Of a stretch of DNA of 41,768 nt, positions 25,408-28,900 are shown in pieces (position 1 is the stretch's first letter; every line of letters begins with the position of its first letter). The translations under genes and the position numbers were made by a program. The stretch lies in the IMG/VR virus record IMGVR_UViG_3300029303_000014. One strand, written 5' to 3'. Under the pieces are notes generated by a model. The model was not told the DNA's origin and did no database searches. It saw only the letters and a list, made by a program, of their open reading frames with translations. Source of the DNA: a virus.

Positions 25408-25530
25408 ATGTACAACCGACTTTTAGCTTTGGGATTTACCGAGCAGATGGCGATGGACATTTTGACGCTGTTTCCCGACCCTGACGAGCTGAGAACTTAC
25501 GTCTACTTTGCAGAGATGTTCCATGTATAG
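25408..25530 (+). CDS. Micro-ORF (40 aa)
   Basis: AAAGGAGG lies 9 nt upstream of ATG 25408. Confidence 0.45.
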   Translation: MYNRLLALGFTEQMAMDILTLFPDPDELRTYVYFAEMFHV

Positions 25531-25906
25531 CTATTTCAACCCAAATCCAAACGGGCGCAACGTGTCAGACTGCACCGTACGCGCGATTTGCAAGGCAACA
25601 GGGAAGGACTGGGGCGAAGTCTATTTGTCGCTGTGCATACAGGGATACTTAGACGGCGACTTGCCCAATGCAAATGCCTGTTGGGGCGCGTATCTGCGGT
25701 CACTTGGGTATCGGCGATATATCATGCCGAACACCTGCCCGGACTGCTACACGGTCGGCAGGTTTGCCGATGAGCACCCGCACGGGACGTATATCCTCGC
25801 GCTCTCCGGTCATGTGGTCTGTGTGCAGGACGGTGTAATTTACGACAGCTGGAACAGTGGGAACGAAATCCCGCTTTATTACTGGGTAAAAGAAACGGAG
25901 GAATGA
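25523..25906 (+). CDS. Hypothetical protein, possibly a papain-like/C39-like Cys peptidase fold (127 aa)
   Basis: N-terminal NPNPNGRNVSDCTVRAI (candidate Cys), later SGHVV (candidate His) and DSWN. The fold assignment is inference only. Confidence 0.6.
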   Translation: MYSYFNPNPNGRNVSDCTVRAICKATGKDWGEVYLSLCIQGYLDGDLPNANACWGAYLRSLGYRRYIMPNTCPDCYTVGRFADEHPHGTYILALSGHVVCVQDGVIYDSWNSGNEIPLYYWVKETEE

Positions 25907-25908
25907 AC

Positions 25909-26346
25909 ATGGCATATCCCTATTTCAACCCCTATTATCCGCAGCCGATGACGGATAACCTCATGCAGATGCGACAGATGCAGCAGCCACAGATGCAGCC
26001 CATGCAGCAGCCTATGGCGCAGCCAGTGCAGCAAAACCCCATCGCGCAGGGCGGCGTGCAATGGGTAAGTGGCGAGCAGGAGGCGAGGGGTTATCTCATC
26101 GCGCCCAACTCTGCCGTTGCGCTGTGGGATTCTACCGCGCCGACTGTGTACCTCAAGCAGGCAGACGCAAGTGGAAAACCGACGCTCAAGGTTTACGACC
26201 TCGTAGAGCGCGCAGAAACGGCCCGCACAGCGCCGCAGGAAAAGGGCGTGGAATTTGTCACCCGCAAGGAGTTTGACGCGCTGGCGGCGCTTGTGGGCGA
26301 ATTAAAGGGCAAGAAGAAGCGCAAGGAGGACGATGACGATGAATAA
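25909..26346 (+). CDS. Protein with a Q/P/M-rich low-complexity N-terminus and a K/E/D tail (145 aa)
   Basis: GGAGGA lies 6 nt upstream of ATG 25909. Contains MQMRQMQQPQMQPMQQPMAQPVQQNP. Confidence 0.7.
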   Translation: MAYPYFNPYYPQPMTDNLMQMRQMQQPQMQPMQQPMAQPVQQNPIAQGGVQWVSGEQEARGYLIAPNSAVALWDSTAPTVYLKQADASGKPTLKVYDLVERAETARTAPQEKGVEFVTRKEFDALAALVGELKGKKKRKEDDDDE

Positions 26347-26557
26347 TCCGTTTATGGCCGCGCTGGGCGGCGGGCAGATGCCAGGGCCGGTAAGTGAGCT
26401 GATGCAGCTCAAGCAGAAATTCCAACAGTTCCAAAGTGGCTTTCAGGGAAACCCAAAAGAAGAAGTCAATAAGCTCCTGCAATCTGGCGCTATGAGCCAG
26501 CAAGAGTTAAACCAACTTCAATCTATGGCAAAACAGTTCGAGCATTTATTCCATTGA
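26339..26557 (+). CDS. Q-rich small protein (72 aa)
   Basis: AAGGAGGA lies 8 nt upstream of ATG 26339. Confidence 0.62.
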   Translation: MNNPFMAALGGGQMPGPVSELMQLKQKFQQFQSGFQGNPKEEVNKLLQSGAMSQQELNQLQSMAKQFEHLFH

Positions 26558-26608
26558 TCTTATCGTGGCCACGATTTGATAAATAAAATTTATGAAAGGA
26601 GAGATAAT

Positions 26609-27379
26609 ATGTCTCTTTCCGACGGTGCTCCCATGATGACTATGCCGGTCGCGCCCGCGAACAATTACGGCGGCGGTATGGGCATGTGGGGCGACAACTG
26701 GATCTGGATTATCGTTCTTTTCCTCTTCGGCTGGGGCCGCAACGGATTTGGCAACGGTAACGGCGGCGGTGTGATGGACGGCTACGTTCTGACATCTGAC
26801 TTTGCGAGCGTTGAGCGCAAGCTCGACAGTATTGCAAATGGCATTTGCGATTCCACCTTTGCGTTGAACAACGCCATTACTGGCGGCTTTGCTACGACCA
26901 CACAGGCCATCAACACCGGCTTCGGCAATGCCGAGCTTTCCCGTAGCAACCAGCAGGCGGCGCTTATGCAGCAGCTCAACGCCATGCAGATGCAGGCCGC
27001 AAATTGTTGCTGCGAGAATCGCGCGGCTATCGCGCAGGTGCGCTACGACATGGCGACGCAGGCGTGTGACACGCGCAACACCGTGCAGAACGCGACGCGC
27101 GACATCATCGACGCGATGAACAGCGGGTTCCGCGGCATCGATCAGCGTCTAACCGCGCAGGAGATCGCTGCGAAGGACGCGAAGATTGCTGAACAGAACC
27201 AGCGTCTTTTTGCCGCTGACCTCGCGGCCTCTCAGGCTGCTCAGACGCTTGATATGCGCAACTATGTTAGCGCACAGTTCGCGTATTACAACCCGCGCCC
27301 CGTTCCTTCTTTTGAGGTTCCTGCACCTTATCAGTACGGGGGTTGCGGCTGCGGCTGCAATCAGGGCTGCGGCTGCTGA
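26609..27379 (+). CDS. Gly/Asn-rich membrane protein with a CCC motif and a (GC)n Cys-rich C-terminus (256 aa)
   Basis: AAAGGAGAG RBS. Contains hydrophobic WIWIIVLFLFGW, NCCCENR and a C-terminal YGGCGCGCNQGCGC. Confidence 0.7.
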   Translation: MSLSDGAPMMTMPVAPANNYGGGMGMWGDNWIWIIVLFLFGWGRNGFGNGNGGGVMDGYVLTSDFASVERKLDSIANGICDSTFALNNAITGGFATTTQAINTGFGNAELSRSNQQAALMQQLNAMQMQAANCCCENRAAIAQVRYDMATQACDTRNTVQNATRDIIDAMNSGFRGIDQRLTAQEIAAKDAKIAEQNQRLFAADLAASQAAQTLDMRNYVSAQFAYYNPRPVPSFEVPAPYQYGGCGCGCNQGCGC

Positions 27380-27462
27380 CAACTGCATAGCATAGCTTTT
27401 TGTTGGCAATGTTTTGTTGACGCCAACAAAATGTTCGGCCCCGTGCCGATACTAACAACAAC

Positions 27463-27497
27463 GCGGCGGGGCAATAGCTCCGCCGCTGTATTTTTTT
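27463..27497 (+). terminator. Rho-independent terminator
   Basis: 10-bp stem GCGGCGGGGC/GCTCCGCCGC with an AATA loop, followed by TGTATTTTTTT. Confidence 0.8.
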
Positions 27498-27512
27498 GAA
27501 AGGACTGAACTC

Positions 27513-27728
27513 ATGAAAACGATTGACGAGCTGAAACAAGAATTTGTAGACCATCTTGCTGCTATGGATAAGTCCGAAATGAGCATGTTCGAACTCACAA
27601 ACTATGCCGATCTGCTGCATAAGGCGGATGCTCTTTTCAAGCCAAGCTATACAGATGTACTTGCATCTGGCTTCATTCCCCCTTTTGCGGCAACTACTTG
27701 GAAAAAGGAGGAGAAGGAAAATGGCTGA
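27513..27728 (+). CDS. Hypothetical protein (71 aa)
   Basis: Clean ORF after the terminator. The stop overlaps the next gene. Confidence 0.6.
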   Translation: MKTIDELKQEFVDHLAAMDKSEMSMFELTNYADLLHKADALFKPSYTDVLASGFIPPFAATTWKKEEKENG

Positions 27729-28143
27729 ATATAGTAATTCCGCTATTGTTTCTGTTGCTGCTGGGCAAAACGTCCCGCTGACGGAAACTGCGGTCAACAG
27801 CAAGCCTTGCATCGTGCATCGTGAGGGTGCTGGCATTGTCACGCTGCGCGGCCTCACCAATCAAAACCGCGCTCTGTTTAGGGTCTCCTTTGGCGGCAAC
27901 ATCGCTATTCCCACCGGAGGCACGGTCGAGGCCATCACGGCGGCGCTTTCCATCAACGGAGAGCCGTTGACCAGCGCAACGGCGACCGTCACACCCGCGG
28001 CGGTAGGGAACTACTTTAACATTTATGTTTCCGCACAAGTCTGCGTCCCGAAAGGCTGCTGCCTGACGGTCGCAATGGAAAACACCAGCACTCAGGCCGT
28101 CAACTTCGCCAACTCGAACCTGACGGTTGAGAGAATCGCGTGA
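27721..28143 (+). CDS. Beta-sandwich protein resembling the C1q/TNF-like BclA C-terminal domain (140 aa)
   Basis: GGAGGAG RBS. All-beta pattern ending ...NFANSNLTVERIA. The assignment is from recalled family pattern only. Confidence 0.6.
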   Translation: MAEYSNSAIVSVAAGQNVPLTETAVNSKPCIVHREGAGIVTLRGLTNQNRALFRVSFGGNIAIPTGGTVEAITAALSINGEPLTSATATVTPAAVGNYFNIYVSAQVCVPKGCCLTVAMENTSTQAVNFANSNLTVERIA

Positions 28144-28156
28144 AAGGAGAATGGAC

Positions 28157-28564
28157 ATGAGCAAGAAAGCAATGTACGATCTGCGCAATATGCTGTGCGA
28201 CGAACTCGACGAGCTGGCACGTAAGGGCGAGCTTGGCGCGGGCGATCTCGAAATTGCGCACAAGCTGACGGACACCATCAAAAACATCGATAAGATCGAG
28301 ATGATGGAAGACGGCGGCTATTCCCGTGATGAAGACTATTCTCGCCGCTATTCCCGCGACGGAGACTGGCAGTCGGGTATGCGCGGCGCTTATGACCGGG
28401 ATATGTCCAATGCGAGACGCGGCACGCACTACGTCCGCGGCCACTATTCCCGTGACGGCGGAATCGACAACATGAAACGCCAGTTGCAGGAAATGCTGGA
28501 CAACGCCGACGATGAAAGCATCCGCAGAGCCATCCAGCGCTGCATGGACACGATTGAGGGCTAA
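28157..28564 (+). CDS. Hypothetical protein with YSRD repeats (135 aa)
   Basis: AAAGGAGA lies 7 nt upstream of ATG 28157. Contains GGYSRDEDYSRRYSRDGD ... HYSRDGG. Confidence 0.68.
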   Translation: MSKKAMYDLRNMLCDELDELARKGELGAGDLEIAHKLTDTIKNIDKIEMMEDGGYSRDEDYSRRYSRDGDWQSGMRGAYDRDMSNARRGTHYVRGHYSRDGGIDNMKRQLQEMLDNADDESIRRAIQRCMDTIEG

Positions 28565-28579
28565 AGGGGGTGCGCCCCT

Positions 28580-28900
28580 ATGGTCGACGAGAATGAGGTC
28601 AAGCGCTGGATAGCCCGCCTTGAAACGGAAGAATCAAGCTGGACAAACTATGAGCGCCTTGCCGTGTTGTATGCCATCCGTGACAAGCAAAGCGGCAGCA
28701 GAGAGAAGGCTTTGCCAATGGAATACTCCGCAGCACCCGCGCCGGTTAGCGTCGAAACATACGGCGACAGCGATTTTCTACGCGCAGTGGCAGATGTTCC
28801 GCCAGACAAGGCATGGGAGATTATGGACGAGCTGATGGACAACTTGAAAATCGTAAACGAGCGCGTCTATAATAGCGTCATGCGGAAACTAGAAAAGTAA
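28580..28900 (+). CDS. Hypothetical protein (106 aa)
   Basis: AAAGGGGG lies upstream. Last gene before attP. Confidence 0.68.
   Translation: MVDENEVKRWIARLETEESSWTNYERLAVLYAIRDKQSGSREKALPMEYSAAPAPVSVETYGDSDFLRAVADVPPDKAWEIMDELMDNLKIVNERVYNSVMRKLEK

Follow-up and report, generated by a model that had tools for sequence, protein, structure and literature searches.

What are the nine consecutive plus-strand open reading frames (ORFs) between the endolysin and the integrase of the virus IMGVR_UViG_3300029303_000014 for, and do they belong together? The stretch of DNA analyzed here, called the window throughout, is 41,768 nucleotides long and is the complete genome of a temperate siphovirus. The ORFs in question, P1 to P9, are co-oriented and occupy positions 25408-28900. 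A first-pass annotation made from the letters alone had described them as a lysogenic-conversion module in the usual position of phage morons and had raised the idea of a spore-surface role. Comparison with related phages establishes that they are part of an accessory cassette, self-contained and passed on horizontally, which is carried by siphoviruses infecting gut Clostridia (Oscillospiraceae and Lachnospiraceae). The core of this cassette consists of P0, P2, P3, P4, P5, a three-hairpin RNA with a terminator, P7, P8, and usually P9, with P0 lying outside the coordinates of the earlier annotation.

All nine of the annotated ORFs are present, and every sequence feature quoted for them (Q/P/M-rich, Cys-rich, YSRD, and others) was located in their translations. 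They are genuine genes rather than chance reading frames, as judged from their PHROG matches and from a synteny that is kept at the protein level in more than 100 loci although the DNA diverges. Seven of the nine proteins match PHROG families, all of unknown function, six with E values from 1e-10 to 1e-52 and P9 weakly (E 0.005). Scans of the nine proteins and P0 against Pfam, NCBIfam, and PADLOC returned nothing significant except for the region-4 matches of P0, and no signal peptides are visible in the cassette proteins. No description of this cassette was found in the literature searched.

Conservation and Distribution

Conservation as a block, a check that the first-pass annotation had itself named, is borne out. 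Presence was counted in 80 IMG/VR loci picked solely for a close P7, with a locus being eligible for a given gene where enough flanking sequence was available. P5, P8, and P9 occur in every eligible locus (71/71, 79/79, and 78/78, respectively), P2, P3, and P4 in 68/70, 69/70, and 70/71, and P0 in 64/65, the series P2-P3-P4-P5-P7-P8-P9 being found in 68-79 of 70-79 eligible loci. P1 is present in 60/70 and P6 in 32/80; these two and, to some degree, P9 are the optional members. The flanking genes are often replaced, with a window-type lysin in 23/60 and a window-type integrase in 22/67 loci. Around 30 hand-checked loci, compared by tblastn with the window proteins, have the order P2-P3-P4-P5-(P6)-P7-P8-(P9), which is held down to 30-45% protein identity. 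The cassette is the only long stretch that the window shares with Butyrivibrio phage Ceridwen and with Dulem 39, and the same is true of Dulem virus 35 if the terminase gene is set aside. These comparisons used long intervals alone, as tblastx on small databases gave many spurious short matches.

The family is large. A close P7 is found in at least 586 IMG/VR contigs. The hosts, as inferred from GTDB genomes, are in most cases Oscillospiraceae or other members of the Clostridia; a few contigs of phage size are placed in Prevotella, Bacteroides, or Collinsella bins, which is probably the result of mis-binning. In a metagenome protein collection, P5 makes up at least 7766 clusters at 90% identity, none of them named, and P7 makes up 7186, with 633 representatives at 50% identity. 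The typical source of these clusters is a contig of 40-45 kb, and the names given, if any, are "hypothetical." Every cassette member is also "hypothetical" in PHROGs and GenBank. Of the gene sets that lack annotation in the gut phages of humans and animals, the cassette is one of the more abundant.

The unit is not closed to insertions, as accessory genes are found within the cassette in Ceridwen (264 residues) and Dulem 39 (247 residues); no informative domains were found in these two proteins or in the 2369-residue protein of L007 described below (L numbers denote individual loci). A 120-kb Oscillospiraceae contig, L017, retains at 6336-7818, amid ordinary host genes, just a P5 that has lost its N-terminus, the RNA element, P7, and P8. 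This stretch is a decayed prophage remnant that has kept P7 and P8 intact.

Genomic Settings of the Cassette

The earlier annotation placed the block between the lysis cassette and attP, and both of the flanking genes it named are confirmed. These are a Peptidase_M15_4 endolysin (22866-23474; Pfam), which is preceded by an XhlA-like protein and small membrane proteins, and a tyrosine integrase on the minus strand (29142-30170; Pfam Phage_integrase, E 1.5e-13). The lysin does not adjoin the block: P0 and a 1.4-kb minus-strand insertion intervene. L002-5 and Dulem virus 33 likewise carry the cassette after the lysin and before attP and the integrase.

Other carriers place it elsewhere. A different phage lineage, represented by L007 and L006, has it after a protein of 2369 and 2605 residues, respectively, without an intervening lysin. 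Ceridwen has it after the lysis genes, with no integrase in the stretch viewed; only a lytic cycle has been observed for this phage, and its authors conclude that it is probably virulent (PMC7372960). The cassette of bajarodcaudo virus 5 follows a holin, a C39-like endolysin, and P0, and faces convergent replication genes, with no integrase annotated within the stretch viewed. That of Dulem 39 follows a same-strand integrase, and just P5 and P7 are detectable. Dulem virus 35 carries its cassette inside the head module, between a MuF-like minor capsid gene and the scaffold and major capsid genes, with lysin and integrase located elsewhere in the genome. In every setting with late genes at its flanks, the cassette runs in the direction of these genes. 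With six settings seen, a place between lysin and attP is common without being a defining trait, and temperate phages are not the only carriers. The step from moron position to lysogenic conversion is not supported in view of the occurrence of the cassette in the apparently virulent Ceridwen, in bajarodcaudo virus 5, and in the head module of Dulem virus 35.

Two of these settings have features of their own. The 2369-residue protein of L007 (1296-8405), encoded directly 5' of P0, has a HEVTH zincin-like motif and no Pfam match, and may be a polyvalent or ejected protein. The prophage in L006, a contig of 196 kb, ends with the cassette, which directly abuts a 210-residue SpoIVA fragment (12209-12841) that holds only the middle and C-terminal domains. 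This suggests that the prophage is inserted into spoIVA, as known intervening elements are in sporulation genes.

Predicted Folds of P2 and P7

P2 (25523-25906, plus strand; phrog_3754, E 1e-35) is a 127-residue protein in which a possible papain-like Cys/His arrangement had been noticed. Residues Cys17, His97, and Asp108 are invariant in an alignment of 50 sequences (63-93% identity) and are retained in the 36-45% identical homologues from Bacillus, Geobacillus, and Ceridwen, which align over residues 4-123. The same 50-sequence alignment contains a CPxC motif, of which Pro73 and Cys75 are invariant and Cys72 is nearly so. In the AlphaFold2 (AF2) model, which has a mean predicted local distance difference test (pLDDT) score of 93.5, Cys17 starts a helix (17-26), His97 precedes a strand (98-102), and Asp108 ends a strand (105-108), with the His97 and Asp108 strands being adjacent. 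The top four Foldseek matches all have the papain fold (Josephin-2, Tae4, AvrPphB, and TssM), although they are weak, with E values of 0.27-0.9 and template modelling (TM) scores of 0.23-0.45; a gamma-D-Glu-DAP endopeptidase is also among the neighbors. Searches of P2 against Pfam, NCBIfam, and PDB sequences gave no match. Taken together, the confident model, the invariant triad, and the four papain-fold top matches lead us to accept P2 as a predicted minimal papain-type enzyme, in line with the first-pass annotation, whose reaction could be peptidase, amidase, or transglutaminase-like. An assignment of P2 as the catalytic domain of a C39-like endolysin, like that of bajarodcaudo virus 5, was tried and rejected (hhalign probability 0.4%). 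P2 homologues also exist without the rest of the cassette in Bacillus Tsamsa-like phages, where they are named "putative peptidase," in Geobacillus phage GBK2, and in Lak megaphages.

P7 (27721-28143, plus strand; phrog_20016, E 2e-52) is a stand-alone protein of 140 residues with a conserved N-terminal extension of ~30 residues. The AF2 model contains eight strands, with a pLDDT of 65 and a predicted TM score of 0.63, and the first 31 residues are unmodelled. All 50 listed Foldseek matches in the PDB come from TNF/C1q/BclA/BxpB-type entries, with a probability of ~1.0 and E values of 2e-3 to 1e-2. These matches, with TM scores of ~0.4-0.57, include GITRL, EDA, TNF, and the spore proteins BxpB (8d02), ExsFA (7r1m), and BclA (3twi), the last three at 0.51-0.57. 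Matches in BFVD are stand-alone phage proteins of ~135 residues and C1q/collagen proteins. At the sequence level, the Pfam family BclA_C (PF18573) is matched by 3/69 representatives of the P7 family (best E 7.3e-7). P7 itself has no Pfam match at E <= 1, sequence and profile searches against PDB sequences returned nothing, and an hhalign comparison of the P7-family profile with the BclA C-terminal domain was not significant (probability 1.65%, E 0.03). The likeness to the C1q/TNF-like domain of BclA that had been pointed out for this protein is thus recovered by structure comparison, and a C1q/TNF/BclA-type jelly-roll is supported for the modelled P7 at the level of fold, not of family membership.

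P7 is also the most conserved member of the cassette, with a median identity of 94% against 57-68% for P5, P4, and P8. Although P7 identity was the criterion by which the 80 loci behind this comparison were selected, the ~30 tblastn loci rank the proteins in the same way. Among 150 listed representatives, lengths run from 72 to 196 residues, with full-length proteins mostly at ~135-155, which is too short for any of them to carry a collagen or fiber shaft. Invariant Cys clusters are found in P5 (CCC and a C-terminal GCGC), P7 (Cys30 and Cys113-Cys114), and P2 (the CPxC motif).

P5 and the Low-Complexity Proteins

P5 (26609-27379, plus strand; phrog_16490, E 2e-41) is a 256-residue protein made up of a conserved MPVAP motif at the N-terminus, a Gly-rich stretch, a short hydrophobic segment (WIWIIVLFLFGW), a Gly/Asn-rich stretch, and a long middle region whose sequence reads as helical. 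The middle region carries an invariant CCC (NCCCENR), and the C-terminus is a Cys-Gly tail, YGGCGCGCNQGCGC. Invariant positions in the alignment include L37, F38, G41, W42, C133-135, and C254. Insertion of P5 into the membrane would be through the hydrophobic segment, which is ~13 residues long; as the highest 19-residue Kyte-Doolittle value is just 1.23, this membrane association is put forward only as an inference. Neither sequence nor profile searches found a relative in the PDB.

The gene is a mosaic. Beyond the hydrophobic segment, the rest of the N-terminal third (residues ~60-125, window 26780-26990) is highly variable, while residues 126-256 are near-identical, and P5 is ~57% identical in loci whose P7 is 91-97% identical. 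This pattern suggests recombination or diversifying selection within the cassette at P5. Separately, the junction between P4 and P5 is interrupted in some phages by a minus-strand gene or a gap of ~1 kb (L001 9944-10495, L035 7981-8826, and L010 3043-4072). The inserted gene carries an endonuclease annotation in Dulem virus 33 and encodes 281 residues in L035/L036; it looks like a homing-endonuclease-like gene in Dulem virus 33 and is probably one elsewhere.

The remaining members are small and of biased composition. P3 (25903-26346, plus strand; 147 residues; phrog_21718, E 1e-33) opens with a Q/P/M/Y-rich low-complexity stretch (MQMRQMQQPQMQPMQQPMAQPVQQ), followed by a small conserved domain (W54...L74, D76, Y83, K85, D88, G91, P93), a helix, and a KKKRK-acidic tail that ends in KKKRKEDDDDE. 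No significant relative of P3 was found in the PDB or Pfam, and its DUF4912 matches (4/14 members, best E 0.011) were dismissed as noise. P4 (26333-26557, plus strand; phrog_22984, E 6e-18) is 74 residues long, or 72 from the second ATG, and contains 18% Gln. P8 (28151-28564, plus strand; 137 residues; phrog_28802, E 5e-10) has an R/S/Y/D/G-rich low-complexity core (YSRD, RDSMGRYSR, HYVRGHYSRD) between two conserved segments. The Cys-, Gln-, and Tyr-rich compositions of the cassette proteins are confirmed, and for P3, P4, P5, P8, and P9, no relative with a known structure could be detected.

Two acidic proteins and a peptide complete the set. P1 (25408-25530, plus strand) is an optional peptide of 40 residues, 92% identical in L010 and 45% in L011/L014, with an unannotated P1-like ORF seen by eye 5' of P2 in Ceridwen. 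P6 (27513-27728, plus strand), also optional, has 71 residues and is 61% identical in L012. P9 (28580-28900, plus strand), the last gene before attP, has 106 residues, is 31% identical in Ceridwen, and is absent or undetected in several other lineages.

A Structured RNA Element between P5 and P7

A strong internal terminator had been reported to split the genes into two units. The terminator is real, formed by 27463-27486 and a T-run that reaches 27497, and with 10 pairs, 9 of them G-C, it is the strongest of the region. It belongs, however, to a conserved RNA element and is not a simple boundary. This element, on the plus strand at 27377-27497, extends from the P5 stop codon through the terminator; its window copy measures 121 nucleotides and its model 106 positions. 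In order, it is made up of a single-stranded CAYA-N3-TAG..GCT, hairpin 1, which is variable in sequence and conserved in pairing, hairpin 2 (TCGGC-N5-GCCGA), a single-stranded GATACTRAC..CAAC, and hairpin 3, which is the intrinsic terminator.

The seed alignment of the element contains 22 loci, for which RNAalifold gives 21 pairs, 8 of them compensatory, with 95% of the alignment cells paired. The covariation score of 0.29 exceeds that of shuffled alignments (0.17; 0/500 reach the observed value) as well as all slid controls. A covariance model built on this alignment finds one copy per locus, on the plus strand and always in the gap between P5 and P6 or P7, in 79/80 IMG/VR loci, and there six of the six pairs of helix 1 covary, in an alignment fitted to the model. 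The element is also found outside the seed in L001 and L032 (Dulem 33 and Dulem 35), and in L027 it sits 5' of P2. Rfam 15, riboswitches included, has no match in 27377-27510 at E <= 1 or at gathering thresholds.

Two readings of the element were discarded. A peptide of ~21 codons from an ATG inside the element is broken by one-nucleotide indels in L016, L023, and L024, while the stems covary. An antiterminator role for hairpin 2, through base pairing to the terminator's 5' arm, is contradicted by L004 and L018, where the complementarity is not kept, and no conserved alternative pairing of this kind was seen by eye. The CAYA-N3-TA motif past the P5 stop codon is compatible by eye with a sigma-K -10 element in 15/22 loci when set against the sigma-K -10 consensus, and the window has no "AC" at the -35 distance. 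CAYA-N3-TA could be such a -10 element, which would make the RNA a small RNA (sRNA) or leader of ~95 nucleotides. More generally, the element could be an attenuator, a 3'-untranslated-region element, or an sRNA, and the motif is by itself a candidate new cis-regulator or sRNA.

Expression of the Cassette

P0 (23536-23811, plus strand) is a 91-residue sigma-70 region-4-like helix-turn-helix (HTH) protein (Pfam Sigma70_r4_2, E 9.7e-6) encoded directly after the lysin. Homologues or analogues stand 5' of the cassette in L006/7, L010, L011, L014, L002, Ceridwen, and Dulem 35, and the counterpart in bajarodcaudo virus 5 matches Sigma70_r4 with 26.7 bits. A terminator lies directly 3' of the P0 gene in L007, L002, Ceridwen, and Dulem 35.

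Promoters were sought with a sigma-70 scan that required at least 9 of 12 consensus matches and left alternative-sigma promoters outside its scope. Within this scope, no plus-strand match exists ahead of P1 in the window (25221-25407), and the sole 9/12 match ahead of P6 (27403-27432) falls inside hairpin 1, where the sequence is not conserved. Spacing points the same way. P6, or P7 where P6 is absent, begins 10-30 nucleotides past the T-run of the RNA element; in the window, the P6 ribosome-binding site (RBS) lies ~10 and its start codon 16 nucleotides beyond it. In L010, the P1 RBS begins 28 nucleotides after the P0 terminator, and L011 and L014 have a second hairpin and T-run ~30 nucleotides before the P1 RBS. 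P6 of the window and P1 of L010 start too near a terminator to have their own promoter. The good RBSs ascribed to all nine genes are found before eight of them as Shine-Dalgarno sequences, the exception being P2, a gene that overlaps the stop codon of P1.

The tight spacing, which leaves no space for a promoter, and the consensus scans suggest that the cassette is not a constitutively expressed prophage moron. In the simplest reading, it would be reached by read-through from upstream, with the RNA element metering P6-P9 against P1-P5.

The Slot behind P0 and the Flanks of the Cassette

The region between P0 and P1 or P2 varies among carriers. In the window, it holds a 1.4-kb minus-strand insertion (23812-25220) that separates P0 from P1 and lies outside the cassette. 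The insertion encodes a 261-residue Zn-ribbon/HNH-like protein, a 130-residue XRE-type HTH protein, and an 86-residue ORF, and has a perfect TTGACA-17-TATAAT promoter (25293-25265) overlapping a 20-bp palindromic operator, ATACGCTAATATTAGCGTAT. Homologues of its genes are found in just 10-19/66 related loci, and it is probably an independent cargo unit. In L002-L004, the slot between P0 and P2 carries an AcrIC5-like gene and a 60-residue gene read as Aca-like (anti-CRISPR-associated; L002 5100-5610), and the promoter of this acr-aca operon is a perfect sigma-70 match, accompanied by a palindromic operator (TATACGGTAATACCGTATA). L004 additionally holds an Acb2/Tad1-hairpin-like gene. From the AcrIC5-like, Aca-like, and Acb2/Tad1-hairpin-like genes of these relatives, the slot is seen to be an anti-defence cargo site.

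At the other end of the cassette, the attP region (28901-29141) contains a 3' end of the transfer RNA (tRNA) or transfer-messenger RNA (tmRNA) type (GGGGTTCGACTCCCGCCGCCTCCACCA, ~28970-28996), for which the Rfam match to a tmRNA 3' end is weak (28970-28982, E 0.43), and a terminator-like hairpin (29000-29034) found in a terminator scan. Tandem 12-nucleotide AATTGCAGATGR repeats on both sides of attP (28900-28923 and 29128-29151) may be integrase arm sites. These features suggest that the phage integrates into the 3' end of ssrA; the attB/tmRNA target was not confirmed through the integrated relative L035, whose contig ends differently. The rest of the window holds the siphovirus genes, with the large terminase at 3000-4241, the major head protein at 9027-10241, and portal, MuF-like minor head protein, tape measure, and tail genes. 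A tRNA upstream of the terminase genes (2155-2223) scores 55 bits in Rfam (E 2.7e-9) and is unreported by ARAGORN.

What the Cassette May Do

Our preferred reading, offered tentatively and in the knowledge that it may well prove wrong, sees in the cassette a late-lytic module, gated by terminators, whose products would build a protein assembly centered on P5 and P7. It would be transcribed as a distal extension of the late (lytic) unit, with P0 and the RNA element setting how far RNA polymerase reads through. The weakest step of the proposal is that the products would then form one multi-protein assembly. In it, P5 would be a membrane-anchored coiled-coil stalk and P7 a trimeric ligand-binding knob, highly constrained and docked through its conserved N-terminal extension, while P3, P4, and P8 would supply low-complexity matrix or linker components and P2 a maturation or cross-linking enzyme. 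Proteins of the C1q/TNF/BclA_C fold are known as obligate trimers and typically form the terminal knobs of fibers. Because the cassette proteins have no signal peptides, action is expected inside the infected cell or after lysis; the assembly would work at the inner membrane face or, once holin and endolysin have opened the cell, outside, for instance on progeny virions or cell debris. Its benefit would be to lytic propagation, in temperate and virulent carriers alike. This reading is favored for the fixed gene order, the conservation and knob-type fold of P7, the Cys clusters, the low-complexity partners, the P2 triad, and the missing export signals.

Several observations weigh against it. 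The hydrophobic segment of P5 is short (~13 residues, 19-residue Kyte-Doolittle maximum 1.23), the P7 model is of moderate confidence (pLDDT 65), and the trimeric state is predicted by analogy. A specific docking site on the virion would fit poorly with the movement of the cassette between phages whose capsids and tails are unrelated. P2 may act independently, as it stands alone in the early regions of other phages. Read-through would follow from promoter spacing and sigma-70 consensus scans alone, and there are promoters nearby: in L002-L004, the perfect acr-aca promoter lies 0.5 kb 5' of P2 with no terminator between, so that P2-P5 of these loci could be expressed early or in the lysogen, and in the window a divergent promoter/operator region beside the XRE regulator is found just 5' of P1.

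The spore-surface idea of the first-pass annotation survives as a minority reading, and an unlikely one. In this form, the prophage would express the cassette for lysogenic conversion, to remodel the envelope or spore surface of the Clostridia host, with P7 as a BxpB/BclA-like protein, P5 as a Cys-rich cross-linked matrix, P3 and P4 as Gln-rich transglutaminase-type substrates, P2 as the cross-linker, and P0 as a GerE-sized regulator. The P7 fold does match BxpB, ExsFA, and BclA among TNF/C1q folds, with 3/69 relatives reaching BclA_C, and the Cys-, Gln-, and Tyr-rich compositions fit. Yet no coat or exosporium family in Pfam or NCBIfam is matched by any of the nine proteins, P7 itself stays below the BclA_C threshold with an hhalign probability of 1.65%, and neither a collagen-like region of GXY repeats nor an exosporium-targeting motif is present, the P7 N-terminus being MAEYSNSAIVSVAAGQNVPLTET when set beside the BclA-type targeting motif. 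Location speaks on both sides: the cassette is last before attP and the integrase in the window and many relatives, at the junction of prophage and host, and at least one carrier prophage lies beside a truncated spoIVA, which means that its host has at least part of a core sporulation gene, but it also occurs in the apparently virulent Ceridwen and inside the head-gene cluster of Dulem 35. Butyrivibrio fibrisolvens, the host of Ceridwen, is not known to sporulate. The survival of a truncated P5, the RNA element, P7, and P8 in a decayed prophage remnant, and the resemblance by eye of CAYA-N3-TA after P5 to a sigma-K -10, are further points in favor; against the reading, no independent sigma-70 promoter was detected, and the sigma-K-like motif of the window has no -35 "AC." A broader version, in which the cassette is a kit for an exosporium-like Cys/Gln-cross-linked layer or fiber, with a P7 trimer on a P5 stalk matured by P2, switched on by P0 and by an RNA that would be of a new regulatory class, and coating spores, lysing cells, or virions of gut Clostridia, is a slimmer prospect still. 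If true, it would mean changed persistence of phage or host in the gut.

We also consider it improbable that the cassette is an anti-defence or host-takeover island, whose genes would act singly or in small groups soon after infection (P2 cleaving a ubiquitin-like or other defence protein, for example, and P7 sequestering a ligand), with the synteny reflecting co-regulation. The AcrIC5-like, Aca-like, and Acb2/Tad1-hairpin-like genes lie directly 5' of P2 in close relatives with no terminator before P2, P2 homologues stand alone among small early-type genes in GBK2, Tsamsa-like phages, and Lak megaphages, and the structural neighbors of P2 include deubiquitinase-type papain folds (Josephin-2, TssM), although this similarity is weak (E 0.27, probability 0.66). 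The nearest published context is the hypervariable acr-bearing regions at prophage ends in the gut Clostridia genus CAG-217 (PMC8545432). Anti-defence loci are typically hypervariable, however, whereas here eight genes are fixed in order across lineages. Pfam and PHROG place none of the proteins in a known Acr or anti-defence family, PADLOC gave nothing relevant (its sole match, of P5 to PD-T4-6, is weak and of coiled-coil type, E 0.006), and low-complexity, Cys-rich, membrane-associated proteins are atypical of anti-defence genes. A lysis or egress accessory module is the least probable of the alternatives. It would extend the holin-endolysin cassette, with P2 as a second NlpC/P60- or Tae4-like amidase, P5 as a membrane-anchored coiled-coil protein with conserved cysteines and spanin-like architecture, and the rest acting on outer envelope layers. 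It takes in the position directly behind the lysis genes on the same strand in most lineages, and the presence of Tae4 and a gamma-D-Glu-DAP endopeptidase among the Foldseek neighbors of P2. The Dulem 35 cassette, moreover, contains a protein of XhlA-like architecture (coiled coil and C-terminal transmembrane segment), similar to the window XhlA-like protein (BLASTP E 2e-5), together with a small transmembrane protein, with the endolysin elsewhere; the XhlA-like call in Dulem 35 is without Pfam support. The hosts of these phages are monoderm, so a spanin-like function is unneeded, and P2 has neither a cell-wall-binding domain nor a signal sequence and, at the profile level, does not resemble the bajarodcaudo virus 5 endolysin of C39-like type (hhalign probability 0.4%). 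The module also offers no role for P3, P4, P7, and P8. Possibly, the cassette genes share regulation but not function.

Should the cassette prove to build a structure or modify the envelope, it would represent an assembly of a new type that phages encode in Gram-positive anaerobes. It is now a tractable system, as a fixed-order unit with a regulator-like gene and a covarying RNA that is mobile regardless of the lifestyle module, and a cultured host-phage pair that carries it exists in Butyrivibrio fibrisolvens DSM 3071 and phage Ceridwen.

Comparison with Known Systems

At the level of single proteins, P7 is closest to the C-terminal domain of BclA and to BxpB (ExsFA), which it resembles in size (~140 residues) and, as modelled, in its all-beta jelly-roll topology; as in BxpB/ExsFA, the domain stands alone and has no collagen stalk. 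It differs from BclA_C (PF18573) in being phage-encoded, in its ~30-residue N-terminal extension and GCC motif, and in standing always within the cassette. As TNF ligands score equally well, the match is to the fold and not to an exosporium family. P2 shares the Cys-His-Asp order and, in its predicted model, the placement of helix and strands with the clan CA papain-like proteins (Josephin, AvrPphB, and NlpC/P60-Tae4), but is far smaller at 127 residues, has the extra CPxC, and has no significant family match (E >= 0.27).

As a regulated unit, the cassette invites comparison with the late unit of phage lambda, in which Q acts at PR'-tR' and cargo such as stx can follow, and with processive-antitermination and attenuator RNAs. 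Lambda Q-type units also have a small regulator gene, one or more terminators, and then cargo without export signals that is released by lysis. P0, by contrast, is sigma-region-4-like and not a Q homologue. Attenuator-type RNAs are alike in being structured leader or intergenic RNAs that end in a terminator right before genes; the cassette element differs from antitermination RNAs in having no Rfam relative and, by eye, no conserved antiterminator pairing.

The third comparison is with phage morons and lysogenic-conversion cassettes at the lysin-attP junction, such as the toxin or immune-evasion clusters of Firmicutes prophages. What the cassette has in common with them is its location, as far as the window and many relatives go, the non-essential-looking content, the horizontal exchange, and the neighboring acr-aca and XRE cargo. 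Morons consist of one to three genes, however, as opposed to eight to ten in fixed order here, and the cassette further differs in having no visible signal peptides and no detected independent sigma-70 promoter, in its own regulator-like gene and structured RNA, and in its occurrence in carriers without a nearby integrase and in a head module. We would class it with the accessory cassettes of phages, as a variant that is new, self-regulated, and of unusual size.

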